From Gemmatimonadota bacterium (GTDB lineage: Bacteria; Gemmatimonadota; Gemmatimonadetes; Longimicrobiales; Gaopeijiaceae): DNA of 64,000 nucleotides. Within the stretch, counting starts at the first letter, position 1, and every line of letters starts with the position of its first letter. Location of the stretch: contig JBDHHQ010000003.1 of the NCBI GenBank assembly GCA_039589315.1, positions 64,001 to 128,000 of the forward strand, in the 5' to 3' direction. Under the pieces are notes generated by a model that was given only the letters and a program-made list of their open reading frames with translations, searched no databases and had not been told where the DNA came from. This document shows positions 14,061 to 29,674 of this stretch, piece after piece. The position numbers and the translations under genes were made by a program.

Positions 14061-14289
14061 TCGGCTCCCCCGTTTCGTGCGGTCTCGTCCCAGGGGGGCG
14101 ACGCAGGGGTCGCCCCGAGCTGCACCGCACCTGACCCGTAAGCAGGCGTCTCGTCGCCCGAATCAAACGCACAACAATGCCCCGAAGCGGCAAGTCGGGC
14201 AAGCAGTTCGCGACGTCGGTTGAAACCGCGTTTCCGCGGTGCCCGTACGGTGGCCTGGACCCCCTAGAACCAACCGGGAGAGCTCAGCC

Positions 14290-15564
14290 GTGCGTTCCCT
14301 GGCCATCCTCGCCGCCCCTCTGGTCCTCGTCGCCTTCGTCTCTCCGCTCGGCGCGCAGAGCCAGGAGGAGCGGGACGAGAGTGCCCTCCGTCTCACCGTT
14401 GGAGGCGTAGGCCTCACGGTGGGGAACGCTTCCCGCGCCAACGGCCTGCGCATCAACTTTCGGGACGACTACCTCGAGCGGGTCAACGGGATCAACCTCA
14501 CGCTCTGGACCGCCCGTGAGCAGGTGGGAGGAGAGGTCGACGGACTGGCCCTCGGTGTCCTGGCTCCCCAGGCGGGTCGGATCCATGGGGCGGCCCTGGG
14601 ACTGGGTGCCGTCGTGGGGGAGGAGCGCCTGGCGGGGCTCAGCGTCGGGGGCTTGGCGGTGGTCTCGTCCGGCGACGCGTACGGTGTGAACGTGGGCGGG
14701 TTGGCCAGCGTCACCCAGGGTGACATGACCGGCCTCAACTTCGGTGGCCTGGCCACCGTCTCGCAGGGTCGTCAGTCCGGGGTGAGCTTCGGCGGGCTGG
14801 CCGTGGTCAGCCAGGGAGGGACCCGCGGCGCCACCGCCGCCATCCTGGCCGTGGTTTCCCAGGGCGGCGTCCTGGGCATCTCGGCAGCCGGTCTGGCAAC
14901 GGTGGCAGAAGGCTCGGTCGAAGGGCTACAGGCGGCGGGCCTGGCGGTGGTCGGGCAAGGCGCCCTCAGGGGGGTCTCGGCCGCGGGTCTGGCGCTCGTG
15001 GCAGAAGGACCCGTGGTGGGCATCAACGCGGCAGGTCTGGCGCTCGTGGGTCAGGGCGCCCTGTCCGGCGTCAACGTGGCAGGCCTGGCCGCGGTCAGCG
15101 AAGGGAGGGTCGCGGGTCTCAATGTGGCCGGCCTGGCGTTGGTGGCCGGCCCCCTCCACGGCTTCGGCGGGTCGCTGGGAGCGGTGGTAGCCCAGGGTGG
15201 GATACGGGGCGTGGCCGTGGGCGGAGGCGCCATCGTGAGCTCCCGCGACGTGCGGGGAGCAGCCCTCAGCGTCGGAGCCGTCGAGGCGGCGGACGGCATC
15301 CGGGGAATCGCCACGGGCCTGGCGAAGATCAAATCGCCGGACATCCGGGGCAGCGCGCTGTCCCTCGGCTACCTGGACGCGGGCCGGGTGGACGGGTTCA
15401 CCGTGGCCGGGTACAACCGGGTCCGGGGGCGCCACAGCGGCCTTTCCCTGGGGCTTTACAACTCCGCCCGGGAGCTGAACGGCATTCAGATCGGGCTGCT
15501 GAACCGGGCCGACAACAACCCCACTCCGTTCCGGTATCTGCCGTTCATCAACGTGCACTTCTGA
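14290..15564 (+). CDS. Exported Gly-rich repeat protein (LA_2272-like surface repeat family)
   Basis: Signal peptide; many 19-aa repeats G-x-N/S-x-x-GLA-x-V-x-Q/E-G; C-terminus GIQIGLLN...LPFINVHF. Confidence 0.7.
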   Translation: MRSLAILAAPLVLVAFVSPLGAQSQEERDESALRLTVGGVGLTVGNASRANGLRINFRDDYLERVNGINLTLWTAREQVGGEVDGLALGVLAPQAGRIHGAALGLGAVVGEERLAGLSVGGLAVVSSGDAYGVNVGGLASVTQGDMTGLNFGGLATVSQGRQSGVSFGGLAVVSQGGTRGATAAILAVVSQGGVLGISAAGLATVAEGSVEGLQAAGLAVVGQGALRGVSAAGLALVAEGPVVGINAAGLALVGQGALSGVNVAGLAAVSEGRVAGLNVAGLALVAGPLHGFGGSLGAVVAQGGIRGVAVGGGAIVSSRDVRGAALSVGAVEAADGIRGIATGLAKIKSPDIRGSALSLGYLDAGRVDGFTVAGYNRVRGRHSGLSLGLYNSARELNGIQIGLLNRADNNPTPFRYLPFINVHF

Positions 15565-15650: not shown

Positions 15651-18080
15651 CTACGTGAGCCCTGGGCTCCCCTTGCCAGCGAGGCCCGAGACCTCCGGTC
15701 GGACACCCTCCTCCCGATGCCGTCGGTCCACCGGTTCGTCTGCGATGGCCACGCGCAGCGCCTTGAGCCCATAGACCCCCTGGAAGTCCTCGAGATCGAG
15801 AGGCTCCACTCCGGGCATGGTGTACCCGGCAGCCTCGAGGTAGTCCAGATACCCGAGGTACTCCTCCGCCTCCTTCTCGTGCGAGTAGGCGATCGCGAGC
15901 TTGCCGGGCTGGGTCAGCCGCTCCTGGCTGTTGCGGATGCGGGCCTTGTCGATGCGCTTCTTCACGATCTCGTAGCGGATGTTGTAGGCTCCGTCCACGT
16001 CGAATTGCTTTTCGTCCGAGCGAAACCGAATCGACAGGGGGGTGTTCTGCACGAGCACCAGGTGCGTGGCATCCAGTGGAATCATCATCTGGGGCCGGAC
16101 ATCGCGGAGCTTCCACTCGATCCGGCACATGAGCATCAGCTGCCACAGCCTCAGGTTGCGGAGGTAGAGGCGATCGAAACCACCGTGCTCCAGTAGCGAA
16201 TCCCCCACGTAGATGCTGTAGTCGACCCCGTCGGTCTTGAACATCTCGAAGTAGTGGGGGAACATGGCCTGAGCGTGGATCTCCTCCTCCTCGAGCGTGA
16301 GTGCCACGGTGTCGTTGATCAAGGCGACCGAATCGTCGAACTCCTTGCGGCGCCGGTAGAGTATGCCAAGCTCTGGGTCGAGGGCTTCCCGGTACTCGTC
16401 CACCCGGCTACGCACCTCCCCGCCGTACCCCGCCACGCGGTCGAAGAGGGACTCCACCCCATCGTGGAGAAACTCGAGGACCGTGGACTCGTCATCGGCG
16501 GTGAGGCCGTCCTGGATCGCCTCGTTGAGGGCGCGGATCCGATACGCGAGCTCGTCCAGGATCGGCAGGCGCCGCGCCCGGGTAGCGGCCCCGATGACGC
16601 CGGCCGCGAGGTCCAACTGGTAGATCAGGTCCGACTGGATGGCGGTATTCCGTTGCTCCGAGGATCCGCGCAGGTCTGTCAGTCCGTACAGCGGATGCAG
16701 ATCCTTGAAGACGATGGGCTCCCGCTGGGGCACCTTGCCTGAGGCCTGCTGCTCCAGGTAGGAGTGGGCCGCATCGCGGAAGCGCCATTCGACGACCGGA
16801 TGGATCGCCGTGTACTGCTCCTTGATGAGGGCCTGGATGCGATCTTCCTGCTCTTCGAGCGTCCGCTTCATGGCCGTGGCGAAGAGATCCACCACCTCGT
16901 AGAGCTTCAGGCTGTCCAGGGCATTGAGCCCCTTCCGGCGGGGGGTCGCCACCTCCAGAAAGCCGAGCATGCGGCCGTCGAGCCTCAGCGGATAGATCAC
17001 CAGACTCCGGAATCCTTGCGCCAGTAGGTGCTGCTCGAAGCTTGTTCTCGCCTCGCTGTCCAGATCGTGCACGATGACGGGATCCGAGGACTCGAACGCC
17101 CGGGCGTAGCACGACTCCTCCTTGCGGGAGCACGCGGGGACGGTGTTCTTGTCCATGAGAATGCTGCGGCCGACGGGATGTGCCCCCACGATGTCGTCGA
17201 CATCCTGGCCCCGCTCGATGGCGATCAGGCCGAACTCCAGCTCGGGGCGCCCCAGGAAGTTGCGGAGGCGGCCCCGCACCCGATCGAGGTGTGCCGGAGA
17301 GGTCAGCGCCTCGGAATGCAGCAGGTCGTTCTTGAGCCGGGACAGGGACTCCTGGTGGGTCACGTCGGTGGCGGCCACCAACGTCAGACCCCGGAACTCG
17401 AATGACGTAGGCGGGAGCTTCTCCATCCAGAGCTCGAGGTTCGACGGGTCCGAGATCATGGACGCGATGTCCTCCTCCGAGAGCTCCGGGAGGGGCCCCG
17501 TGGCCTCCACCCGTACGAAGCGCGGGTCGAGACCGACCTGGAGGTGCCGCTGGAGACCGCTGTCCTCGTCCTCGAGCGTGAGCACCATCGGGTAGTGGAT
17601 GTCGGCCTCCACCCCATACAGCCAGCTCAACGCCACGTTGTAGGCGAGGATGGCCTTGCCTGCCATCAGGAGCTCGACTGGCATGTCGATCCGCTCCTCG
17701 AAGGCCGTCGGGTCGAAGAGACGCCTCTCCGCGGCAGCCGGAGTCATGAACACCGGCGTCATCTTGAAGGGCACCACCGCCCCGGCGAAGACCCGGTCCC
17801 CCAGGGCCAGGGGAAGCACACCCATGAGCATCATCTCGACGAGGAACCGGTGCTCCTCCAGGGCCGACAGGTCCTCCACGTCTCCACGGAGCGCCTCTAC
17901 ACCCTCGACCTTCTCCAGGATCGTGCGCGCCAGGTGCTCTCGGACGGGGGACGTCCCGGCCTCGGCGACCTGCCGCCAGAAGTCCAGTAGCGGCTCGAAG
18001 GAGAGCACGGCGCGGAACGGAAAGGCGCCTTCCAGGATCGCGACGGCCCGTCTCAGGGGCAGCTGACTCTGCTGGCTCAT
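15651..18080 (-). CDS. GAF domain-containing protein with a putative divergent class III nucleotide cyclase domain
   Basis: GAF signature DPVIVHDL...QGFRSLVIYPLRLDGRMLGFLEV; C-terminal motifs YGLTDLRGSS, FKTDGVDY, FDVDGAYN, QPGKLAI. The CDS is confident; the cyclase call is inference. Confidence 0.75.
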   Translation of the reverse strand: MSQQSQLPLRRAVAILEGAFPFRAVLSFEPLLDFWRQVAEAGTSPVREHLARTILEKVEGVEALRGDVEDLSALEEHRFLVEMMLMGVLPLALGDRVFAGAVVPFKMTPVFMTPAAAERRLFDPTAFEERIDMPVELLMAGKAILAYNVALSWLYGVEADIHYPMVLTLEDEDSGLQRHLQVGLDPRFVRVEATGPLPELSEEDIASMISDPSNLELWMEKLPPTSFEFRGLTLVAATDVTHQESLSRLKNDLLHSEALTSPAHLDRVRGRLRNFLGRPELEFGLIAIERGQDVDDIVGAHPVGRSILMDKNTVPACSRKEESCYARAFESSDPVIVHDLDSEARTSFEQHLLAQGFRSLVIYPLRLDGRMLGFLEVATPRRKGLNALDSLKLYEVVDLFATAMKRTLEEQEDRIQALIKEQYTAIHPVVEWRFRDAAHSYLEQQASGKVPQREPIVFKDLHPLYGLTDLRGSSEQRNTAIQSDLIYQLDLAAGVIGAATRARRLPILDELAYRIRALNEAIQDGLTADDESTVLEFLHDGVESLFDRVAGYGGEVRSRVDEYREALDPELGILYRRRKEFDDSVALINDTVALTLEEEEIHAQAMFPHYFEMFKTDGVDYSIYVGDSLLEHGGFDRLYLRNLRLWQLMLMCRIEWKLRDVRPQMMIPLDATHLVLVQNTPLSIRFRSDEKQFDVDGAYNIRYEIVKKRIDKARIRNSQERLTQPGKLAIAYSHEKEAEEYLGYLDYLEAAGYTMPGVEPLDLEDFQGVYGLKALRVAIADEPVDRRHREEGVRPEVSGLAGKGSPGLT

Positions 18081-18200: not shown

Positions 18201-18395
18201 GAGGAGCCCAACGACGTCCTGCGCCGCCATACGCGCCCCATCCGCCCTGGTCGGGGGCGTTCTAGCGTGGTGCTGCACCACACTAGCTTGGACGCAGGGG
18301 TAGGAGCGTGAGCACGAATACCGAGGGTACCTGGAAAAGTACGTCGCAGGATACCCGACGAGCCCAAAGACCTCCTGCGCCGCTATGCGCGCTCC
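18201..18395. repeat. Imperfect 39-bp direct repeat (two copies) flanking a hairpin
   Basis: 18201-18239 versus 18357-18395, 33/39 identical; inverted repeat at 18262-18286. Confidence 0.8.
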
Positions 18396-19597
18396 TACTG
18401 CACCGCGTTGATCATGTCGAAGATCGGCAGATACATCGCCACGATCATGCCGCCCACCACGACGCCCAGCACCACGATCATGACCGGCTCCATGGCGGCG
18501 AGCAGGGCCTCCACCGCGGCGTCCACTTCCTCGTCATAGAAGTCGGCGATCTTGGAGAGCATGTCGTCGAGCCCGCCGGTCTGCTCACCCACGTTGATCA
18601 TCTGGACGACCATGGGTGGGAATACGCCCGACGCCTTGAGCGGTCCGGAGATGGTGTCCCCACCCGCGATGGAGGCGCGAGAGCCCATGACCGCGTCGTG
18701 GATGACCTTGTTGCCCGCCGTCCGGGCCGTGATCTCCAGCCCCTCGAGGATGGACACGCCTGAGGAGACCAGGGTCCCCAGCGTCCGGGTGAAGCGCGCC
18801 ACCGCCGCTTTGCGCAGCAGGTCGCCCATGATCGGCACGCGGAGAAGGAGCCGATCGATGGCCAGACGTCCCTCATCGGTGCGGTACAACTGTCTCACGG
18901 CGAAGGCGCCGGCCCCGGCTGCAGCAGCGCACGCCCACCAGTAGGCCTGGAGGAAGGCGCTCGATCCGATCACGACTCGTGTCGGCAGCGGCAGCGGAAT
19001 GCCCGCGGAAGTGAACATCTGCTGAAAAGTCGGAATCACGAAGATGAGCAGGATCACCACGGCGGACACCGCCACCGTGAGGATCACGCCCGGGTAGATC
19101 ATGGCGCCCTTGATCTTCCGGATCAGCGCGTCGTTCTTCTCCAGGAACGTGGCAAGGCGCAGCAGAATGGTGTCCAGGATGCCCCCAGCCTCACCCGCAG
19201 CCACCATGTTGACGTACAGGTCGGTGAACACCTTCGAGTGTTTACGCATGGCGTCAGCCAGCGTGTGGCCGGATTCCACGTCATACAGGACGTCCTGGAT
19301 CACGGATCGCAGGTGGGTGTTCTCCGTCTGCTCGGCCAGAATGTCGAGGCTCTGCACCAGGGGCAGGCCCGCGTTGATCATCGTCGCGAACTGGCGGGTG
19401 AAGATCACGATATCCCGGGTCTTGATCCCGGTCCCGATCCGCAGGGAGATCTGACGTTCCTTCTGCCGCACGGTGACCGGAATCAGCCGCTGGCGATGAA
19501 GGTACTGGAGCACCTCCTCCTTGGTCCCCAGCTCGATCTCGCCGCTCCGGATATCACCCCCGGTGGCGGGCCGCGCGCTATAGGAAAACGTGGGCAT
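18395..19597 (-). CDS. pilC: Type IV pilus inner-membrane platform protein (GspF/PilC family)
   Basis: FTRQFATMINAGLPL, MVAAGEAGGILD, GEQTGGLDDML, AMYLPIF. Confidence 0.95.
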   Translation of the reverse strand: MPTFSYSARPATGGDIRSGEIELGTKEEVLQYLHRQRLIPVTVRQKERQISLRIGTGIKTRDIVIFTRQFATMINAGLPLVQSLDILAEQTENTHLRSVIQDVLYDVESGHTLADAMRKHSKVFTDLYVNMVAAGEAGGILDTILLRLATFLEKNDALIRKIKGAMIYPGVILTVAVSAVVILLIFVIPTFQQMFTSAGIPLPLPTRVVIGSSAFLQAYWWACAAAAGAGAFAVRQLYRTDEGRLAIDRLLLRVPIMGDLLRKAAVARFTRTLGTLVSSGVSILEGLEITARTAGNKVIHDAVMGSRASIAGGDTISGPLKASGVFPPMVVQMINVGEQTGGLDDMLSKIADFYDEEVDAAVEALLAAMEPVMIVVLGVVVGGMIVAMYLPIFDMINAVQ

Positions 19598-19624
19598 GTG
19601 TCGGTCGTCCTGGTCGTCGGTTGA

Positions 19625-20761
19625 TTAGAGCTCGGGCCAATCCTCGCCCACTGCCTTCAACAGCTCGTTCGGATCCCCGGACCGCTTCACGGCATCCGAC
19701 AGCGAGATCTCCCCCTTCAGGTAGAGCATCTGCAGCGAGTCGTTCATGGTCTGCATGCCATGCTTCTTGCCGGCTTGCATGAGCGAGTAGATCTGGTGGA
19801 CCTTCTCCTCCCGGATCACGGCGCGGATCGCCGGGGTGCAGACCATGACCTCCGCCGCGGCCACGCGTCCTCTCCCGCGGGCCCGGGGGATCAGCGACTG
19901 CGTCACGACCCCCTCCAGCACGAACGCGAGCTGAGCCCGGATCTGGCTCTGTTGGTGAGCCGGGAACGCGTCGATGATGCGGTTGACGGACTCGGCGGCC
20001 GAGTTGGTGTGGAGCGTCGCCAGGACCAGATGACCCGTCTCGGCAATCGTCAGGGCCGCGGAGATCGTTTCGAGGTCCCGCATCTCGCCAACGAGGATGA
20101 CGTCCGGGTCCTGCCGCAGGGCGTACTTCAGTCCGGCCGAGAAGCTTTGCGTATCCGCCCCCACCTCACGCTGGTTCACCATGCAGTTCTGGTGCCGGTG
20201 GATGAACTCGATGGGGTCCTCCACCGTGATGACGTGGCCGCGCCGCTCTCGGTTGATCTTGTCCAGGAGCGACGCGAGCGTCGTCGACTTGCCCGAACCC
20301 GTGGGCCCGGTGACCAGGATCAGCCCGCGGGGCTTGTCCGCGAAGCCGGTCACCACCGCCGGAAGACCCAGCTCCCCGATGGACTTGATCTCGTACGGAA
20401 TCTGCCGGATGGCCAAGGCCACGCAGCCGCGCTGCTTGTAGCAGTTGCCACGGAAGCGGGAGAGGTTCTGCACGCCGAAGGAGAAGTCCAGCTCGTTCTC
20501 TGTTTCGAAACGCTTCTTCTGCGCCTCTGTGAGGATCGAGTACGCGAGGTTCAGCGTGTCCTTCGGCGTGAGCACGTGCTTGATGGCGGAATCCACGAGG
20601 TTGCCGTCGACCCGCAGCTTCGGCACTTCTCCGACCGTCACGTGGAGGTCGGAAGCCCCCCGCTGGATCACCTCCTGAAGGAGGGCCCGGAGGCTGAGCT
20701 CCTGCTGCTCCGGCTCCATTCCGCTCGTGCCCCTCGGGGCCGCGCTGGACGTAGTGCTCAT
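19625..20761 (-). CDS. pilT: Type IV pilus retraction ATPase
   Basis: GASDLH, GPTGSGKSTT, TVEDPIE, ALRQDPDVILVGEMRD, TLHTNSA, AIRAVIRE motif, GMQT. Confidence 0.95.
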   Translation of the reverse strand: MSTTSSAAPRGTSGMEPEQQELSLRALLQEVIQRGASDLHVTVGEVPKLRVDGNLVDSAIKHVLTPKDTLNLAYSILTEAQKKRFETENELDFSFGVQNLSRFRGNCYKQRGCVALAIRQIPYEIKSIGELGLPAVVTGFADKPRGLILVTGPTGSGKSTTLASLLDKINRERRGHVITVEDPIEFIHRHQNCMVNQREVGADTQSFSAGLKYALRQDPDVILVGEMRDLETISAALTIAETGHLVLATLHTNSAAESVNRIIDAFPAHQQSQIRAQLAFVLEGVVTQSLIPRARGRGRVAAAEVMVCTPAIRAVIREEKVHQIYSLMQAGKKHGMQTMNDSLQMLYLKGEISLSDAVKRSGDPNELLKAVGEDWPEL

Positions 20762-22476
20762 CAAGTCACCACCGACGTCTCTTTGAGGACCTCTTCCAGG
20801 GTGGTCAATCCCCGCTCCAGCTTCTTCAGGCCGTCCATTCGAAGCGTGAGCATGCCCTCGTCAATGGCCGCTTCGCGAAGCTCGTCGGTGCCGGACTCCT
20901 GCATGACGAGCTTCCGCATCCTCGAGCTCATGGCCATGACCTCGTACAGGCCCTGACGACCCCGGTAGCCGCTGCCCCCGCACTCGTCGCACCCCTCGCC
21001 GCGATAGAGGGTCACGCGATCCCTGAATCCGTCGGGTAGATGCGCGGCCTGTACGTAGTCTTCCGTGTAGCTCGCCTCGACCTTGCAGCGCTCACAGATG
21101 CGGCGTACCAGCCTCTGGGCGGTCACGAGGGAGAGTGCCGCGGCCACGTTGAACGGTTCGAGGCCCATGTCGATGAGTCGGGTGACCGTAGACGGGGCAT
21201 CGTTCGTGTGGAGGGTCGACAGCACGAGGTGACCGGTCAGCGCCGCTTTCACGGCGATGCCGCCCGTCTCCAGGTCCCGGATCTCACCGACCATGATCGT
21301 ATTGGGGTCCTGCCGGAGAAACGCCCGCAGGGCGGCCGCGAAGGTGAGACCGATCTGGGGGCGTACGAGGACCTGATTGATGCCGTGCAGGTTGTACTCG
21401 ACCGGATCCTCGGCCGTCATGATGTTGGTGTCCTCGGTGTTCACCCTGGAGAGGGCCGAGTACAGGGTCGTCGTCTTCCCGGATCCCGTGGGTCCCGTGA
21501 CCAGCACCATGCCGTAGGGTTGGGCGATGGCGTGCATGAAGTCGATCTCGGCCTTCGGCTCCATACCGAACTTCTGGAGGTCGAAGGTCAGGTTCCCCTG
21601 GTCGAGGATACGCAGCACGATCTTCTCGCCGAAGATCACGGGAAGCGTAGAGACACGGAAGTCGACTACGCGCTTCTTCATGCGCAGCTTGATGCGCCCG
21701 TCCTGAGGCACGCGCCGCTCGGCGATGTTCAAGTCGGCCAGGATCTTGATGCGGGAGGTCAGCGCCGCCTTCATCTTCATGGGAGGCTTCATGACCTCTT
21801 CGAGGGCACCGTCGATCCGATAGCGTACCCGGACTTCCTTCTCGAAAGGCTCGATGTGGATGTCGCTGACGCCCTTGTTGACGGCGTCGGTGAGGAGTCC
21901 GTTGATGAACTTCACCACAGGAGCCTGTTCCACCTGCTCCTGCAGCGACGCCATGTTGACGTCTTCTTCCTCGTCCTCGACGAACTCGACGTCCTCCGCG
22001 ATCAGGTCGCTGAGGATCTCCGCCATCCGGTCGTCGGCCTGGTCGTAGTACTTCTCGAGGTGCTTGCGAAGGGTGAACTCGCCGACGACGACCGGCTCTA
22101 CCTCCAACCGGGTGATGAACTTGACGTCGTCGATGGCCCCGAGATCCGACGGGTTGGCCATCGCTACGGTGAGGGTGCGGCCGACGCGCCGCAGGGGCAG
22201 CACCAGATGCTTGAACGCCACCTCGCCGGGGATGAGCCGCGCGATCTTCTCTTCCACGGTGACGCGGTCGAGATCCACGGCCGGCACGCGGTACTGCCGC
22301 GCCAGCATGCGCGTGATCTCTTCCTCCGCGAGGAAGCCGAGCTTCACCAGGGCGAACCCCACGCGCGTGTTGTGATCCCGCGCATCGGTCAGAGCCTCGC
22401 GAAGCTGAAGCTCCGTAATGAGGCCCTCGCTCACCAGGTGATCGCCGAGGCGGTCTTGGGCGACTTGCGTTGGCAT
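20761..22476 (-). CDS. pilB: Type IV pilus assembly ATPase
   Basis: N-terminal RLGDHLVSEGLIT (MshEN-like), SDIHIEP, GPTGSGKTTT, LRQDP, zinc motif CERC...CDEC. Confidence 0.95.
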   Translation of the reverse strand: MPTQVAQDRLGDHLVSEGLITELQLREALTDARDHNTRVGFALVKLGFLAEEEITRMLARQYRVPAVDLDRVTVEEKIARLIPGEVAFKHLVLPLRRVGRTLTVAMANPSDLGAIDDVKFITRLEVEPVVVGEFTLRKHLEKYYDQADDRMAEILSDLIAEDVEFVEDEEEDVNMASLQEQVEQAPVVKFINGLLTDAVNKGVSDIHIEPFEKEVRVRYRIDGALEEVMKPPMKMKAALTSRIKILADLNIAERRVPQDGRIKLRMKKRVVDFRVSTLPVIFGEKIVLRILDQGNLTFDLQKFGMEPKAEIDFMHAIAQPYGMVLVTGPTGSGKTTTLYSALSRVNTEDTNIMTAEDPVEYNLHGINQVLVRPQIGLTFAAALRAFLRQDPNTIMVGEIRDLETGGIAVKAALTGHLVLSTLHTNDAPSTVTRLIDMGLEPFNVAAALSLVTAQRLVRRICERCKVEASYTEDYVQAAHLPDGFRDRVTLYRGEGCDECGGSGYRGRQGLYEVMAMSSRMRKLVMQESGTDELREAAIDEGMLTLRMDGLKKLERGLTTLEEVLKETSVVT

Positions 22477-22544
22477 CGAGTGCGGTCGTTGGACGTTCCG
22501 ATTGGACCCGCCGCGGCGGGAGCCTTCCACTACCGACCCTTCCT

Positions 22545-23309
22545 TTATCGGCAAGAGGTCTGTGGAACCGTAGCGCCGATGCATCGGCGAACGGGCGGTG
22601 AAAAAACATATGTTTGGTTTCCCCTCCCGTGTGTTCCCCTCGATCGGAGAGGCCGTCTCGCCGGGCCCGCCTTCACGTGCGGGCGGAGGCGATCGAGGGT
22701 CGCCTGGCCGATCCCGCGCACCTGCAGGAGATCGTCCACGGAGCGGAAGCCGCCGGACCGCTCCCGCACCCGCAGAATGCGCCGCGCCAGAGCGGGACCG
22801 ACGCCCGAAAGCGACTGCAACGCTGCCGAGTCCGCACGGTTCAAGTCGATGGCCGGGGACGCGTCACCCCGCTGCCCTGCCTGAGGTGCCCGGTCGAGCT
22901 CCAGGGGCACGCCTGTGGACAGGTCCAGCCGTTCCCCGACCTTCGCCAGCGTTGCCGGGCCGATCCCCCGCACGCGCAGCAGATCCTCGAGGCTGCGAAA
23001 CCCCCCGGTAGCCGATCGCGCCTCGACGATGGCCCGGGCGAGGCCGGGCCCCACGCCCGGCAAACGGTCCAGCTCCACCTCGGACGCCCGGTTGGGATCG
23101 AGGCGCTCGCCGGGGCCCAGGGGGCGATTGCGCAATGCCTCCTCGGCCCCCCGGGCGCGGCTCTCCTCCAGGAGACCCGGAAGCGCGTCGGCCGTATCCC
23201 AGGCCATAGGGGCTTCGACGCGCCGAAGCTCCACCCCGTACCGGATGGTCGAGGCCACCAGCAGCACGGCGGCAGCAGTCGAGAACGCTCGAGTTTCGGA
23301 AGCGGTCAC
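22545..23309 (-). CDS. comEA: ComEA-like DNA-binding protein with two helix-hairpin-helix modules
   Basis: N-terminal hydrophobic anchor; LDPNRASEVELDRLPGVGPGLARAIV...FRSLEDLLRVRGIG and IDLNRADSAALQSLSGVGPALARRI...FRSVDDLLQVRGIG; GTG start behind GGAGGG. Confidence 0.85.
   Translation of the reverse strand: MTASETRAFSTAAAVLLVASTIRYGVELRRVEAPMAWDTADALPGLLEESRARGAEEALRNRPLGPGERLDPNRASEVELDRLPGVGPGLARAIVEARSATGGFRSLEDLLRVRGIGPATLAKVGERLDLSTGVPLELDRAPQAGQRGDASPAIDLNRADSAALQSLSGVGPALARRILRVRERSGGFRSVDDLLQVRGIGQATLDRLRPHVKAGPARRPLRSRGTHGRGNQTYVFSPPVRRCIGATVPQTSCR
22574..22615. promoter_or_regulatory. Palindromes CGCCGATGCATCGGCG (22574-22589) and AAACATATGTTT (22604-22615) upstream of pilB
   Basis: Both are perfect palindromes, about 100-140 nt before the pilB ATG, inside the comEA 3' tail. 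Confidence 0.4.
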
Positions 23310-23401: not shown

Positions 23402-26400
23402 TCAGGGAATGAGGCCGGCCTGGAGGTTGAACTGTCCCCAGATCCCGAACTGCACCTGAGAGGAGCCGGCCCGGGTGCCGATGAAGGACTGACGATCGCT
23501 GAAGGTGAGGTTGAGCCCCATCTCGAACTGCTGAACCGCTGTGTCCACGGACACGTTCAGCGTGCGGTTGATCTGGTCGACGAACGCCGTACACGCCCCC
23601 TGGCCGGCGGTGACGCGACAGTCGAACTGGGAGGCGTACTGGAACCTGGCGATGAGCTGGATCGGCCGGTCGAGCCGTTCGCGCAGCCGCCCCGGCGGCC
23701 TGAACGAGGATGACACCGATACGTTGTGTGTCTGCCGCTCGCGTTCGGTGTCGCCGGCCGGATCGCGCCCCTCACCTCGCTGGAAGCTGCCCGAGTAGGA
23801 GGTGCTGACGTTGCCGGCCCACGTGATCGAGAGGTTGACCGGGATGCGGCGGTCCTCCTGGACCCGTAGCTGCTCGGCCGTTCCCCCCTGATCCGACTCC
23901 CGCCGCACCTCCTGGAATCCGGACGCCAGGGTGAGTCGCCTCACGACCGCGGACGCGATGCCGGGCAAGGTGAGGTTGGCGAAGCCGGCTTGCACGTCGG
24001 GCCACGTCCGCTCTTGATTCCCACGGCCGATCCGCTTGTCCAGGCTGTTCACGTTGGAACGGGCGTACTGCACGTCCACCGAGAAGCTCAGGGGCAGTTG
24101 GAGGCCCGAGGCCAGGGTCAACGACTCGCGATCCGTCACGAACGAGGCCGTGTCCCCGTCCAAGAAGCGGAACTGCTCCCGCCCGCCGAGTCCCAGCTGA
24201 TATCCGGCCCCGGGGTCCACGAGCTGGCGGCTGAAGCGGGACGTGATTCCGTCCAGCCAAGTGACCCGGAAGGGCGCCAGCGCCTGGAGCACCCACCGAC
24301 CGGCGCCGGTGAGCGCGGACTCGCCGTCCCGGGGTGCGTCGCCCAGCGCCGAACGAGCGAGGACCCGGGAATCCAGGGTCATGCCGGCGCGCCGATCCCG
24401 CTGGCTGTTCGCGTTCCGCCCGAGGGTAGACACCGTATCCGCGATCACGATCACCGAGTCGCCCTGCATGACGCTGTCCACCGGTGTGATGGTGGTCTGG
24501 ACGAAGGACGGGTTGCGGTCGGACCGGTAGCTGGTGTTCATCCCGAGGTCGAAACGCAACCAGTCCGTGACGCTTGGCCTCCAGCCGAGCTGAGTCCGCA
24601 CGACGCGGTTCGTCTCCCAGCCCACGTCCAGCCCGAGGAAGCGCGAACGTTCCTCGGCGATGACCCCCTGAGCCACGGTGTCGCGAATGGACTCGGCGGG
24701 CGGCAGCAGGTCCCGGGTCTCCGCGATCGCGAGGGAGGCGGTCAGCGACGCGAAGGGCCGGAGCGACAGGTCGGCGGTCGTCTCCAGGCCCTCGCGCGGA
24801 GAGAGCGTGGCGCTCACGATGCTGTCCCTCGGCAGCTCCAGGATCTGCTCGAACCGGAACGCCTCGTTGTCCTGACGGTTGTATGTGGCGCGCAAAGAGA
24901 AGCGGTCCGGCGTCCAGCGAAGCCGGCTGGCCAGGATCTGCTCCTCGAGCTGGCGGGGGAACAGAAAGCGGATGACCGGCTCCAAGAAGGACGGGATGTA
25001 ATCCAACTCCCGGGCGTCCAGGACACGGCCGTATCCGATGGCTCCGTCCAGCCCGGACGAGAGGCTGCTTGACGTCACGGTGGTCGATTGGGCAGAGGCG
25101 TAGCCGAGGCGGGCATCGAGACCGTCCAGCAGGATGGAGCCGATCGTGCTCGCCGTGGGGGTCCGTTTCCGGAACGCCATCTGCACCCGCGTCCGCCTCG
25201 ACCCCGTTTCCCGGAGGTTCGGGATCTCACCCGCCTGGATGTCGCTCTGAGGGAGGAAGAACGGATCCAGCCCCGTGGACGTGTGCTGCACCGTCAAGGG
25301 GATCTCCAGCCCCCACGGCGCAGGGGCGAAGCGTCCGAGCTGGAGGGTCGAGTTGACGCTCACGAGCTGGTCGCTCTGGTAGGAAGGGTCCGCCTTCAGC
25401 TGCCTGAAGAACGCGCCCCGGTCGGAGACCGACAGCCGGGCCGTGAGGACGTCGGCCGCCTGCAGATCCACGTCCACGTAGCCGGCGAGCCCAGGGTCGC
25501 GGACGCCCCCGGAGAGCCGGAACTCGTTGATCCAGAGCTCGCCCTCGATGGGAATGTCGCTCTGATTCAGCACACCGAGGGACATCTCCCGGACGGCATA
25601 CAGGTTCGGCGCCCGCCCACGGTCCCTGAGGACCACCGCGTACGTCGAATCCGCGCTCCACACCTCCCGGGGCGCATCTCCCGTGGCCAGGGGATTCAGG
25701 ATCAGCTCCTCCTCCGCCTGCCGGCGCAGGTCGAACCAGACCTCGAAGTCGATCACGTGCTCGGGCACCCAGTCGACGGGGGTCACAGCTTCCGGGTTCG
25801 CGGCAGGCGTGAGACGAGAGCGGTAGAGGTAGAAGTTCTCGGAGTCGTTGCCGACCTTCACGAAGAAATGGACCGGCAGCGCGGGATCCCAGTCCCCGTC
25901 CCGGGCCACGGCCCAGATTCGGGCCTGCCGGTAGGTGAGGAAGTTCCTGGGCCGTTGGGGGAAGCGGTTGAAGACCTCGACCCGCTCGCCGGGAGCCACC
26001 CCGTCGTACGTCAGGCCCAGAGACTGCTCGTTGAACTCGACGGAAATGGCGCCGAGGGCCGACGTGGGGTTGTCCAACTCCTCGAGCACGCCGGGTGGAG
26101 ACGAGTAGGCACCGCCCTTCGTCAGGCTGCTGGCCGGGCTCACCTCGAGTCTGCCGCCGCTGCCGAGGGTGTCTCCGCCCAGCCCACGCACGATCCCCGT
26201 CTGGGCCCGCTTCACCCAGCGGGAGCCCACCAGCTTCATCCGGGTGAGGAGCACCGCGTTCGACGCGGACGCGACGAACGTGATCCGGATGTGCTTCACC
26301 GAGCGCCAGTCTGCGTCCGTGACCAGGCCGTCCACGTTCGTCCCGTTCTCGCCCCGGAGCGCGAGACGGTACAGCTCGAAGTCGGTGCCGGTCTCGCCCT

Positions 26401-29400
26401 TGCCCCTAGCCAGGAACGGCGAAGTCCCATCGAAGGCCACGACGTAGCGGTAGTACCGCTCGGCGCCGTCCAGATTCCCGTTGCCGTCCAGGTCCTCGGT
26501 GTCCGCCCGCCCGTTGCCGCGCGTGCAGTTGGCCTCGGGAGCACCCACGATGTAGATGGTGCCGGGCGTGGCCAGGCAGTCCTCACCCCAGTTGCCCCGT
26601 GCGTCCGCCTGATCGCTCCACACTTCGCCGACGCTGAGCTGCGCCTCCTCGTCCCGGAGGCCCAGCCCCCAGGCCTGGCCGTTTTCCTTGACGCCGCTGG
26701 TGGCCCCGGCCGAGTCCACGAAGAACGCGTCCTCGCTCGCGCGGCCGACGTCGATGATCATGACGACCGAGTCCTCCTCCGCCACGCTGGCGTAGAACTC
26801 GAGGAACTCCATCCGCGTCAGGTCGAGCCCCGTCGTGCTCAACACCGTGGTGAAGGACGCCCATTTGTCGCGGGTGAGGTCCTCGTCGGCGCCCACGGTG
26901 GCCAGCATCACCTGATCCCGGGTGTTCGTCCCGGCTACGTTGATCTGCTGGTCGATGTCCTGGGGGAAGATCCCCTCGAACACCCGCCCGTCGGGCTGTA
27001 CCCAGGCGTGTTGCCACGTCAGCGTCGTCTTGTCCGTCTCGTCCAGCGCGGGCGGGAGGACCGTGCCCGCCCCGTCACGACGTCCGGGCACGCTGCCCAG
27101 TCTCCAGGACGTGCTGAGCACCGAGAGCGGCACGTCGGCGTTCCCGTCGAAGTCGTCGATGTAGACGTCACCCTGGGTGTTGGGGTTCGGCAGGGACATG
27201 GCCAGCTCGCCGGCCACACGGATCGATGAGGTCCCCGAATAGTGCAGGGCCGGTACCCGGTCCAGGAACCGGTCCAGCCACGAGGCACCGAAGTCCAAGC
27301 GTCCGTTGACGCCCCCCAGCGCCACGGCTTTCGGCTCCACGCCCAACTGAGGCCGCCGGACCAAGGCCTTCTCCCGCTGGAACAGCCCCAGGAGATTGAG
27401 GCTGCCACGCTCACCCATCTCGTAGTCCGCGTTGAAGCCGAAGACCGACGTGGGGGCGATCTGGAAGACCGTCTTCTGCTCCCAGGTGGCCCGGATGTCC
27501 GCGTTCGGCGCCACGGCGAAGAGGTTCTGGGCGTCCAGGAGGGTCACCTGCCCCACGTCGTAGTCGATGATGTAATCGACACGTGGCACCAGGAGCCGTT
27601 CTCCGAGGGAGATCCGCTCGCTGCCGTCCCGGATCCCCAGCGCACCGAGATTGAACGTGGAAACGAGGCCCTCGCTCCGCACGCGAAACGGAATCGTGAG
27701 GCGGAAGAGACCGCCGCCGGCCCGCTCCACCGGGTCCGGCGACTCGTAGATGACGCCGTTCGCGTCGTCACCGAGGATCGCCTTGGTGTCCTCGGCGGAC
27801 AGGTTGAGTGAGGGAACCGGCGGAGGATCCAGGAACGGCTGCAGCGTTCGGAACACCAGGAAGGTGCCGGACACGGGTGGCTGCTCCTGGAAGGAGTCGT
27901 CGACGGGCCGGTAGACCTGCGCCCGATCGAGCCGGTCGAACGGGGACTCCTCGTCGAGGCCGAAGAGCTTGAGGAAGGTGATGTCCTCGCCTGTGGGGGA
28001 CCGCTTGAAGGTGCGGCCCGCCCCGAGCTCGCCCAGGGAGACGGTGACGTCGACCGAGTTCACTTCCACGTCGTTGGAGCCCGAGATGCGATACACGTGG
28101 TGCATCTCCAGGGGCCAGGTCGGGGTGCCGGGTTGATGGCTCGCCCCGGAAGCCTTCAGGAGCTGGAGCCGCGGGCGGATCCCCTGGTTGTGGAGGCGCT
28201 CGGGGTTGTAGTCCCCGATGGAGTCCCCGGTGGCGGTGATGTAGGTCACCGCCAACATCTCGTCTCGCCGCAGGGGACTCCGCAGGGCGACCCAGAGGCC
28301 GCTGGGGTGGACGAAGTAGTCCGCGTCGGGCTGGAGGTAGCGGAACCACCCCGATTCCTGGATGGTGTCTCCGTCCAGCACCGCGAATCCGTCGGCCTGG
28401 ATGTAGCCCTGGACCTGCTGGCTCGTGATGGGGTCGTTCTCGAATCGGTAGACCTGTACCTGCTCGGTGCCGGGCACCAGCTCGGGAGGAGCCCGGGATC
28501 CGTCGAGGGACAGGATGTCGAAGTGCGGGTAGTCCTGGATCTCTGCCGGATCGAAGAGGAAGAAGTACTGGCCCTCCACGTAATCGGCGTCGTCCAGGAC
28601 CAACGTGTCCTCCTGCACGAAGGCCTGCTGCCCACCCGCACCGCTGAGCCGGAACTCCCGGGTGGAAAGGTCCCCCTTCTGCTGCGCCCACACGGCCTGG
28701 AAGTCCACGGGCCCGAGCTGTCCCGTGGTCTGGAAGCCGAAGTTCCCGGCCGGGATGCCCTCGGTGAGAAAGCGAGAGTTCGGGGGCAGCTGGTAACTGA
28801 CGTCACCCACTTCCAGGCGCTGGAGGATCTCGTCCTCGAGGCCCTGATAGTAGACGTTGATGTTGTTCGCAGCGGAGAACTCACGCGTCTGGTCGAAGTC
28901 CACGTTCACGTGGACCCTCTCCGATACGGTCCCGGCCACCTGCAGCCCGAACTGCAGCTCCGGGGTCAAGCGGGGGATGATGGGCGCGTTGCACGTGAAC
29001 TGAAGGCCGGTGTCGCAGGGGCGAAACGAGGTCCAGTCCCCGCCCATCTCGGCCCGGCCCCGGAGGCGCATCTGGAGGTCGGTGTATTGCGCGAAGAGGT
29101 CCTGCAGGGCGGCACCCGTGTCCAGACTGTCCCGTTCTTCCTCGGGCTCTCGAACGGGCTCGGGGGGGAGGAACGCTACCGTGTCCGCCTCCACTTCCCC
29201 TGCCGCTTCGGGATCGCCGGCCACCGGGCGCCCCACTCGAGGACTCAGCTCCACGGCCAGCCCCGACGACGAGGGCCTGGCCAGAGGGGCGAACCAGGGG
29301 CTGTCGGCCCCCGGCACCGCCGGAAGCTCGATTGCGAAGGGAAGCGGCATCCGCCGAAGGCCCAACTGCAGGAGCGGCGGCTCTGCCTCCGCCGCCTCCT

Positions 29401-29674
29401 GCGGTGGGCCTGCCTGGGGCGAAGTCGGCTCGGAAGCGGCAGCGGAGTCCAGGGCCGGTGCCGCGGCTGCCGAGTCGGCCACGGGCGTCGCCAGCGAATC
29501 GGCGCTCTGGCCTCGTGCCCCCGGGGCCGACAACAGAAGGAGCAGCATCCCCACGACCGGGACGATCGGCCGTCGCCCGGCGGGTGGGCCCGCGGCGGCG
29601 CCTGCCGGACCGGACGACGCTCCGGGGTGTAACGGGGGTGTTGAGGGGGGTGCTCTGTACCGCTCTAGAGTCAC
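23402..29674 (-). CDS. sprA: SprA-like very large outer-membrane protein (T9SS translocon family)
   Basis: About 2,050-2,090 aa; signal-like LLLLLSAPGARG; VAGTVSERVHVNVDFD, INVYYQGLEDEILQRLEVGDVS, DYIIDYDVGQV, DTEDLDGNG, GELWINEFRL; alternating beta-strand C-terminus. Start uncertain (ATG at 29548 possible). Confidence 0.82.
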   Translation of the reverse strand: MTLERYRAPPSTPPLHPGASSGPAGAAAGPPAGRRPIVPVVGMLLLLLSAPGARGQSADSLATPVADSAAAAPALDSAAASEPTSPQAGPPQEAAEAEPPLLQLGLRRMPLPFAIELPAVPGADSPWFAPLARPSSSGLAVELSPRVGRPVAGDPEAAGEVEADTVAFLPPEPVREPEEERDSLDTGAALQDLFAQYTDLQMRLRGRAEMGGDWTSFRPCDTGLQFTCNAPIIPRLTPELQFGLQVAGTVSERVHVNVDFDQTREFSAANNINVYYQGLEDEILQRLEVGDVSYQLPPNSRFLTEGIPAGNFGFQTTGQLGPVDFQAVWAQQKGDLSTREFRLSGAGGQQAFVQEDTLVLDDADYVEGQYFFLFDPAEIQDYPHFDILSLDGSRAPPELVPGTEQVQVYRFENDPITSQQVQGYIQADGFAVLDGDTIQESGWFRYLQPDADYFVHPSGLWVALRSPLRRDEMLAVTYITATGDSIGDYNPERLHNQGIRPRLQLLKASGASHQPGTPTWPLEMHHVYRISGSNDVEVNSVDVTVSLGELGAGRTFKRSPTGEDITFLKLFGLDEESPFDRLDRAQVYRPVDDSFQEQPPVSGTFLVFRTLQPFLDPPPVPSLNLSAEDTKAILGDDANGVIYESPDPVERAGGGLFRLTIPFRVRSEGLVSTFNLGALGIRDGSERISLGERLLVPRVDYIIDYDVGQVTLLDAQNLFAVAPNADIRATWEQKTVFQIAPTSVFGFNADYEMGERGSLNLLGLFQREKALVRRPQLGVEPKAVALGGVNGRLDFGASWLDRFLDRVPALHYSGTSSIRVAGELAMSLPNPNTQGDVYIDDFDGNADVPLSVLSTSWRLGSVPGRRDGAGTVLPPALDETDKTTLTWQHAWVQPDGRVFEGIFPQDIDQQINVAGTNTRDQVMLATVGADEDLTRDKWASFTTVLSTTGLDLTRMEFLEFYASVAEEDSVVMIIDVGRASEDAFFVDSAGATSGVKENGQAWGLGLRDEEAQLSVGEVWSDQADARGNWGEDCLATPGTIYIVGAPEANCTRGNGRADTEDLDGNGNLDGAERYYRYVVAFDGTSPFLARGKGETGTDFELYRLALRGENGTNVDGLVTDADWRSVKHIRITFVASASNAVLLTRMKLVGSRWVKRAQTGIVRGLGGDTLGSGGRLEVSPASSLTKGGAYSSPPGVLEELDNPTSALGAISVEFNEQSLGLTYDGVAPGERVEVFNRFPQRPRNFLTYRQARIWAVARDGDWDPALPVHFFVKVGNDSENFYLYRSRLTPAANPEAVTPVDWVPEHVIDFEVWFDLRRQAEEELILNPLATGDAPREVWSADSTYAVVLRDRGRAPNLYAVREMSLGVLNQSDIPIEGELWINEFRLSGGVRDPGLAGYVDVDLQAADVLTARLSVSDRGAFFRQLKADPSYQSDQLVSVNSTLQLGRFAPAPWGLEIPLTVQHTSTGLDPFFLPQSDIQAGEIPNLRETGSRRTRVQMAFRKRTPTASTIGSILLDGLDARLGYASAQSTTVTSSSLSSGLDGAIGYGRVLDARELDYIPSFLEPVIRFLFPRQLEEQILASRLRWTPDRFSLRATYNRQDNEAFRFEQILELPRDSIVSATLSPREGLETTADLSLRPFASLTASLAIAETRDLLPPAESIRDTVAQGVIAEERSRFLGLDVGWETNRVVRTQLGWRPSVTDWLRFDLGMNTSYRSDRNPSFVQTTITPVDSVMQGDSVIVIADTVSTLGRNANSQRDRRAGMTLDSRVLARSALGDAPRDGESALTGAGRWVLQALAPFRVTWLDGITSRFSRQLVDPGAGYQLGLGGREQFRFLDGDTASFVTDRESLTLASGLQLPLSFSVDVQYARSNVNSLDKRIGRGNQERTWPDVQAGFANLTLPGIASAVVRRLTLASGFQEVRRESDQGGTAEQLRVQEDRRIPVNLSITWAGNVSTSYSGSFQRGEGRDPAGDTERERQTHNVSVSSSFRPPGRLRERLDRPIQLIARFQYASQFDCRVTAGQGACTAFVDQINRTLNVSVDTAVQQFEMGLNLTFSDRQSFIGTRAGSSQVQFGIWGQFNLQAGLIP

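Follow-up and report, generated by a model that had tools for sequence, protein, structure and literature searches.

The cyanobacterial adenylyl cyclases CyaB1 and CyaB2 carry tandem GAF domains together with canonical catalytic motifs. In the available parts of two reports, PycTM-type proteins are described as the partners of cyclases for cUMP, cCMP and cGMP (PMC11224242; bioRxiv 10.64898/2026.08.12.744502). Here we describe a gene for a GAF protein of 809 aa in a 64,000-nucleotide stretch of a Gemmatimonadota bacterium (assembly GCA_039589315.1, contig JBDHHQ010000003.1, positions 64,001 to 128,000), a stretch that we call the window. An earlier reading made from the letters alone, the sequence-only reading, had proposed that the C-terminal half of this protein is a cryptic class III adenylyl cyclase or pseudo-enzyme linked to the adjoining pilus genes. 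Computation gives this half a class III cyclase fold with an insertion of fixed length and near-invariant residues Asp469, Asp617, Arg709, Ser473, Arg477, Lys712 and Arg776, and ties the gene, which we refer to as the GAF-cyclase gene, genomically to PycTM.

Structure prediction confidently assigns the class III nucleotide cyclase fold to residues 457-781, the C-terminal half of the protein. AlphaFold2 models were made of the full protein (146 sequences) and of residues 450-785 (81 sequences, from which the homologue at locus L002 was omitted for its in-frame stop), and reached a mean predicted local distance difference test score (pLDDT) of 94.0 and 92.0, respectively. A Foldseek search with the C-terminal domain gave five matches at E <= 0.001, all of them Cya2 cyclase-domain chains (best 8.3e-5); next came AC9, CyaB, Rv1900c, AC5, PycC and CyaC, and A-family DNA polymerase palms ranked lower. 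VIA, a search that does not lean on Foldseek, compared the domain with 48,161 chains; its top 21 rows comprise 20 class III cyclases and a hypothetical protein. Its best rows were 2w01 (Cya2; Z 12.1, root-mean-square deviation (rmsd) 3.4, 186 residues) and 3et6 (Z 11.9), with the uridylate cyclase 8jsz (PycC) at Z 11.8 and CyaB at Z 11.4; these rows lie within 1 Z of one another and are therefore treated as tied. In the C-terminal fold searches no GGDEF or Cas10-type palm appeared in the top rows, though such palms may match lower down. Searches with the full-length model had the same outcome, with the GAF domain at 239-415 and the cyclase at 457-778. The check that the sequence-only reading had proposed, fold prediction of residues ~455-790 followed by Foldseek, thus recovers the cyclase fold.

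The order of strands and helices in the domain is that of the class III topology, save for helices 473-566, which in the model extend alpha1 and add a bundle. This makes the insertion between motifs 1 and 2, which the first reading had expected to be mostly helical and which is helical in the model, ~104 residues longer than in canonical cyclases; the structural matches to it in VIA were generic helical bundles only. The spacing between Asp469 and Asp617 is 148 in 443/469 homologues, and some residues of the insertion (D484, E531, Y563, Y575 and R578) are invariant. For PycC enzymes the available part of PMC11224242 gives a metal Asp spacing of 44 (D102/D146; D62/D106).

The GAF domain that had been read ahead of the motif set is recognised by PF13185 (E 5.5e-7, residues 317-389), with a structural extent of 239-415, and it matches 3k2n over 163 residues (VIA Z 13.9, rmsd 2.9). 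A bilin-binding photoreceptor GAF was rejected, there being no conserved Cys in or before the domain (Cys317 is present in 56/146 homologues and Cys324 is not conserved). The model shows the linker at 416-456 as helical. Most of the conservation falls in the cyclase part, where 50/206 columns of residues 577-781 are at least 90% conserved; the N-terminal domain is weakly conserved (4/240 such columns), has no Pfam match and no usable match in the Atlas, and its fold was barely probed by the searches with the full-length model. No convincing membrane segment was found in the protein, the highest 19-residue hydropathy being 1.65.

Four motifs had led to the first cyclase assignment, and they are present in the claimed order a few bases from where they had been placed, at residues 465-474 (window 16659-16688), 611-626 (16203-16250), 692-700 (15981-16007) and 723-732 (15885-15914). 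An ordered three-motif pattern matched 4 of the 7027 open frames of at least 300 aa in the genome, namely the GAF-cyclase gene and the three best PF00211 cyclases, and 0/20000 shuffled sequences. This pattern was composed after inspection of the protein and is no independent test, so we count it as a sanity check and take the fold searches as the independent test.

Conservation of the active site was counted on 470 homologous domains, thinned to 90% identity. Asp469, Asp617 and Arg709 are jointly present in 468/470 domains; taken singly, D469 is found in 468/469, S473 in 467/469, R477 in 466/469, and D617 and R709 in 469/470 each. Positions conserved in at least 95% are D469, S473, S474, R477, D617, G618, Y624, G697, K707, R709, D711, K712, R721 and R776. 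Asp469 lies at the end of the strand 457-471, the position of the first metal Asp in class III cyclases. Asp617 sits in the beta2-beta3 turn, where a plain motif register would put Val619 at the second-metal site. The register was set by covariation, using mean-field direct coupling analysis and per-site logistic regression with ~250-340 effective sequences. In both methods the best beta1-beta3 register is the one of sum 1087 (467-620, 466-621, 465-622), with mean z 0.90 and 0.72; the rival register, 1089, gave 0.74 against 0.90 in one method and 0.06 against 0.72 in the other. Other covarying pairs were 614-620 (z 6.3 and 4.4) and 593-613 (z ~10). This is moderate evidence that Asp617 would occupy the usual second-metal site in a turn one residue shorter than the canonical one, and not a shifted position as the sequence-only reading had it. 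Arg709 lies in helix 699-712 within R-I-D, which resembles R-M-E; the two were matched by eye, which requires an insertion of 4 residues.

The same register suggests that residues 613 and 615 face helix alpha2, so that Lys615 would point away from the base pocket, and that the base-reading position is probably 614 (Tyr in 263 domains, His in 71, Gln in 67, Phe in 45) or 612 (Glu in 443/470). On this register the gapless likeness of the hairpin, E-K-Y-K-T-D-G-V-E-Y, to E-K-I-K-T-I-G-D-S-Y would be misleading. The proposal that Lys and Asp residues specify ATP was, on the strength of the covariation register, not supported: Lys615 is found in 339/470 domains and on the helix side by covariation, and Asp694 is coupled to Arg687. 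As to the conservation expected of the Asp and Lys residues, it is borne out for Asp469 and Asp617 and not for Lys615. Across the family the hairpin reads T-D-G-V-[ED]-Y. The hairpin motif of GGDEF diguanylate cyclases is GG[DE]EF, from which this hairpin differs.

The expectation that such divergence could defeat standard profiles proved right for Pfam, NCBIfam, PADLOC, PDB and hhalign searches, none of which gave a cyclase match. A Pfam scan of the protein returned the GAF matches alone (PF13185 and PF01590), NCBIfam and PADLOC (no family at E <= 0.1) gave no match for the C-terminal half, and PDB sequence searches with the protein and two profiles found GAF matches only. When Pfam was run on 81 homologous domains, PF00211 appeared for 0/81 among the families listed, and weak SPOC and CTD11 matches were taken as helical noise. 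No bridge to canonical cyclases was seen among the best 120 of 1492 shorter proteins, which listed family members only, many of them partial; no longer fusion was seen among 2923 candidates of 1417-4045 aa, which is weak evidence, and the 600 pattern matches yielded no confirmed viral relative. No RNA holder of the family was listed, and the Atlas returned clusters of this family alone for the C-terminal part. PF27174 'YeeD' (Pfam 38) has precomputed matches on many family members and on 32% of the nearest Atlas cluster; this entry may already include part of the cyclase domain, whether or not it records the fold. A literature search found no paper on the family; Table S1 of the preprint cited above, the supplements of a 2015 survey and the PF27174 entry might still mention it.

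The family consists of proteins of ~770-830 aa, labelled in databases as 'GAF domain-containing' or 'hypothetical', and is large: 1589 clusters at 50% identity reach E <= 0.001 and 722 reach 1e-30. The named loci (best 80 of 578) are mostly from Bacteroidota, with others from Rhodothermales, Gemmatimonadota, Poribacteria and further groups, and the nearest among them are Gemmatimonadota of the Longimicrobiales at 52-57% identity. Carriers were 15/101 genomes of the taxonomic family of the source genome, after two weak GAF-only matches were dropped, and 30/201 genomes in a Bacteroidota sample. The source protein is a Gemmatimonadota member of the family, encoded by a single-copy gene whose GC content (64-67%) is similar to that of its surroundings. 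Some related homologues have an in-frame TAG or frame splits (L002:7294-8286; G003, G045, G058), by decay or assembly error; these records, which may overlap, were not treated as independent. A tandem pair of GAF-cyclase genes (L010:3299-8409) follows the end of a ppk1 gene.

The recurrent neighbour of the gene is a PycTM-family gene (PF18967 E 2e-37; PADLOC PycTM E 4e-17), mostly fused to an HD domain, and the HD motif H...HD...D is intact in 38 PycTM neighbours. PycTM adjacency, a criterion of Pycsar systems, was found in 43/80 GTDB loci, mostly in convergent orientation in Flavobacteriaceae and also at two Rhodothermales loci and one Saprospiraceae locus; it was found in 8/80 metagenome loci, and a metallophosphoesterase-Omp85 gene was found in 20/80 loci. 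Other recurrent neighbours encode the Der GTPase (29/80 loci), MsrA (17/80), MsrB (16/80) and SelO (15/80). Because the 80 GTDB loci come mostly from Flavobacteriaceae, the even sample of 201 Bacteroidota genomes was drawn. There PycTM is present in 30/30 carriers compared with 52/171 non-carriers, and it lies within 2 kb of the domain in 13/30 carriers and within 15 kb in 19/30; without the centre genome, which had been chosen knowing the adjacency, the figures are 29/29 carriers, 12 within 2 kb and 18 within 15 kb. Regions were fetched for 20 of the 30 carriers, ten with PycTM within 15 kb and ten without. In the taxonomic family of the source genome, PycTM is present in 12/15 carriers compared with 13/86 other genomes, and among 16 regions it stands beside the gene in none and the Omp85 gene does so in 2.

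Several loci show the wider company of the gene. At L239 one strand carries HD-PycTM, ppk1, a gene of the SdiA-regulated family, phosphoesterase-Omp85 and the GAF-cyclase gene as an operon; L235 and L241 are shorter co-oriented versions of this order, and at L229 the GAF-cyclase gene, HD-PycTM and ppk1 are co-oriented. PycTM does not occur in the window, and the copy of the source genome is on contig C25, where genes for an SdiA-regulated protein, Omp85, a SixA-like phosphatase, ppk1 and a stand-alone PycTM form one co-oriented run (L128:1911-9034), apart from the GAF-cyclase gene. The Omp85 protein of this run has an N-terminal D-W-D-R-H motif that we take to be kinase-like. The PycTM open reading frame (ORF) of the run (L128:8135-9034) has a long low-complexity Lys-rich N-terminal extension where Bacteroidota have the HD domain. 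An ordinary cyclase-TPR gene (L128:7-1908) stops 2 bp before the run. The source genome has 17 PF00211 matches, in several of which the hairpin is a degenerate Q-[FY]-[YF]-G-D-G; the scanned one on C25 is TPR-fused. Relatives of the GAF-cyclase gene keep company with polyphosphate genes and the gene of a membrane pore protein, not with pili, and this points to an undescribed signalling system.

Our preferred reading, to which we give a probability of about 45%, is that of a soluble GAF-regulated cyclase, probably one that does not make cyclic AMP (cAMP), signalling to PycTM in phosphate housekeeping. The protein would act as a head-to-tail dimer like other class III enzymes, and a small-molecule signal on the GAF domain would be passed through the linker helices to the cyclase domain. 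There Asp469 and Asp617 would hold two metal ions, Ser473-Ser474 and basic residues would hold the triphosphate, and Arg709 would stabilise the transition state. The product would be a 3',5'-cyclic nucleotide, with cyclic GMP (cGMP) or a pyrimidine one more likely than cAMP, and would gate the PycTM membrane protein; where an HD domain is fused to PycTM, it may destroy the signal and so serve as an off switch. Gating would serve a housekeeping module tied to polyphosphate and envelope phosphate handling. In the source lineage the gene would have departed from the cluster, its PycTM partner being the one on contig C25. We are more doubtful of the broader claim that the 1589 clusters form a widespread hidden cyclase class in which a non-adenine cyclic nucleotide monophosphate (cNMP) is an everyday messenger that opens the PycTM pore in a polyphosphate-linked envelope module.

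A number of results weigh against this reading of a cyclase signalling to PycTM. The Pfam, NCBIfam, PADLOC and PDB profiles are silent on the cyclase domain and give no sequence-level homology, and profile-profile comparison with 15 cyclases of the source genome by hhalign, in which the alignments were used whole and in slices and the profiles were shallow, stayed below 2% probability; since none of these searches found a sequence signal, homology rests on fold and motif placement. The signal for the chosen register is modest (z 2.5-3.1). Asp694, present in 442/470 domains, covaries with Arg687 as a structural salt bridge would. By motif register the place of the transition-state Asn is Ile705 in 454/470 domains, so that the canonical Asn is apparently lost, and the beta4 Arg (Leu674 or Thr/Ala672) and the C-terminal Lys (Gln767) seem replaced. 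PycTM occurs in 52 sampled genomes that have no GAF-cyclase gene and therefore does not need it; ppk1 stands directly beside the gene in only 1/80, 1/80 and 1/20 regions; the phosphate link runs mostly via PycTM (10/25 PycTM loci in the taxonomic family of the source genome); and, because the genomes counted are related, the counts overstate independence.

The replaced residues, the base-reading Lys apparently among them, would suit a pseudo-cyclase that keeps the fold to bind a nucleoside triphosphate, pyrophosphate or polyphosphate and controls the operon proteins by contact, with no messenger made. The very basic conserved patch of R477, K707, K708, R709, K712, R721 and R776 would suit polyanions, and the cluster includes ppk1, SixA and a phosphoesterase. 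However, both acids and the Arg are near-invariant over several phyla, which would be unusual in a dead enzyme, and active cyclases without the Asn exist: Ma1120, as given in the available part of PMC4215837, is active with Ala in its place. The same source states that guanylyl cyclases carry Glu for the base-reading Lys, and in PycC enzymes pyrimidine selection is attributed to aromatic residues around the same positions in the available part of PMC11224242. These precedents make catalysis plausible, with ATP not the obvious substrate, and we consider a pseudo-cyclase unlikely, if the strongest of the alternatives. Somewhat less likely still is an active two-metal palm enzyme of other chemistry, giving a linear or 2',3' product, transferring a nucleotidyl group to an acceptor held by the insertion, or reacting with polyphosphate. 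The fixed length and invariant residues of the insertion, a base pocket and alpha4 unlike those of every cyclase compared, and the polyphosphate-gene neighbours fit such an enzyme; against it, every one of the nearest fold matches is a mononucleotide cyclase, the match spanning ~185 residues that include elements after the palm, and the best-linked neighbour, PycTM, is from a known cNMP effector family.

That same neighbour, together with the structural match to PycC (8jsz), raises the alternative of a Pycsar-like anti-phage system in which the cyclase kills the infected cell via PycTM. We regard this as improbable: the protein has a GAF sensor and no match to any PADLOC model, the gene is mostly single copy, 33-57% conserved across phyla and fixed in place among housekeeping genes, and it is not adjacent to PycTM in the source genome or its taxonomic family (0/16 regions). 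An adenylyl cyclase serving the type IV pilus, like CyaB of Pseudomonas, was suggested by the sequence-only reading from the position of the gene on the same strand in the pilB-pilT-pilC run, 314 bp after pilC. The order is kept in the same genus (L112, 1/16 regions from genomes of the taxonomic family) and in L155, a 75%-identical relative and the sole case among 80 metagenome loci, many of them on short contigs, and CyaB is among the fold matches. The adjacency is nonetheless confined to these very close relatives, with pilC adjoining the gene in 0/80 GTDB loci (one has a PilB-like ATPase ~4 kb off) and in 0/20 chosen Bacteroidota regions, and the PilC/GspF profile has 0 matches in 2 of the 5 carrier genomes examined. 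The protein lacks a convincing membrane segment, its ATP-reading Lys is doubtful, and the genome already has its ordinary PF00211 cyclases. A pilus-linked role as the family function is thus largely refuted, and we think it very improbable that the source protein is a pilus adenylyl cyclase; we propose instead that the gene stands behind pilC by chance, having left the PycTM cluster in the source lineage.

Two further genes of the window lie close to this region. A SprA-like protein of 2090 aa (PF14349, the type IX secretion translocon family) is encoded at window 23402-29674 on the minus strand, upstream of a ComEA-like gene and pilBTC, and a secreted-looking protein of LA_2272-like Gly-rich repeats at 14239-15564 on the plus strand, convergent with the GAF-cyclase gene.

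Features of the GAF-cyclase gene and the adjoining pilus genes, in window coordinates (residue numbers are those of the protein).
Feature	Position	Strand	Basis or remark
Whole gene, 809 aa	15651..18080	(-)	ORF call; AlphaFold2 mean pLDDT 94.0; N-terminal domain, GAF, helical linker and predicted cryptic class III cyclase-fold domain
N-terminal alpha/beta domain, ~residues 20-240 (220 residues)	17361..18023	(-)	Confidently modelled; no Pfam match
GAF domain, ~241-415	16836..17360	(-)	PF13185/PF01590 and structural match to 3k2n
Helical linker, 416-456, conserved T-A-I-H-P-x-V-E-W-R-F	16713..16835	(-)	Model and alignment
Cyclase beta1 and start of alpha1, 457-486: Asp469 (codon 16674-16676), Ser473, Ser474, Arg477	16623..16712	(-)	
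Helical insertion between alpha1 and alpha2, ~487-576, fixed length	16353..16622	(-)	Model and alignment
Remaining cyclase fold, 577-781	15738..16352	(-)	Fold searches and conservation
Within 577-781: Asp617, Gly618, F-D-V-D-G 693-697, K-K-R-I-D-K 707-712 with Arg709, Q-P-G 724-726, Arg776	Asp617 16230-16232; Arg709 15954-15956		
pilC, pilT, pilB	18395..22584	(-)	Upstream, ending 314 bp short of the gene; neighbours here only, outside the proposed system

For the thousands of proteins now annotated only by their GAF domain or as hypothetical, the assignment would supply a catalytic fold and two named residues for mutation. Bacteroidota 'Pycsar effector' genes without an adjacent PycC would be given a candidate source of their signal in about one third of the PycTM genomes sampled (30/82), and the question of a non-immune role for cyclic pyrimidines or cGMP in bacteria becomes directly testable. 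A long insertion together with drifted motifs is a way in which cyclases escape profile-based censuses. If the broader claim of a widespread hidden cyclase class is true, it would reveal a housekeeping use, and possibly a source, of Pycsar parts, and the protein would be the sole class III cyclase in some Flavobacteriaceae (no PF00211 match was found in G103).

Like CyaB1 and CyaB2, the present protein has a GAF sensor ahead of a class III domain; unlike them it has one recognisable GAF domain, an N-terminal domain without a family and a non-canonical site. It resembles class III cyclases in general (PF00211; Cya2 2w01, CyaC 1wc1, CyaB 3r5g, Rv1900c 1ybt and the mammalian AC C1/C2 domains) in its fold over ~165-190 residues at rmsd 3.0-3.4, in the beta1 Asp followed by a phosphate-binding loop, in the F-D-V-x-G strand, in an R-I-D that resembles R-M-E and in having a sensor domain ahead; the metal site, too, is probably alike. 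It differs in its 6-14% identity to them, in the ~104-residue helical insertion between the two Asp, in the lack of a PF00211 match, in the family's lack of the Gly of the G-D turn and in the apparent replacement of the Asn, the beta4 Arg and the late Lys. Because the PF00211 profile, Asn and Lys tests fail, we file it as an unrecognised, very divergent family of the class III nucleotide-cyclase fold, neither adenylyl cyclase nor Pycsar. The available part of the main text of the Pucsar preprint, which surveys cNMP cyclases, makes no mention of GAF (bioRxiv 10.64898/2026.08.12.744502). With the Pycsar and Pucsar systems (a PycC or PucC cyclase with PycTM, an effector of the pJV1-spdB3 family with three transmembrane segments, 3TM) it shares a class III-fold gene beside PycTM in many relatives and structural matches to 8jsz (Z 11.8), 8jsf (10.1) and 7r65 (9.8). 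It departs from them as a GAF-fused 800-aa protein without a PADLOC match, whose PycTM partner mostly bears an HD domain and whose setting is a fixed housekeeping one, with phosphoesterase-Omp85, the SdiA-regulated-family protein, ppk1 and SixA.

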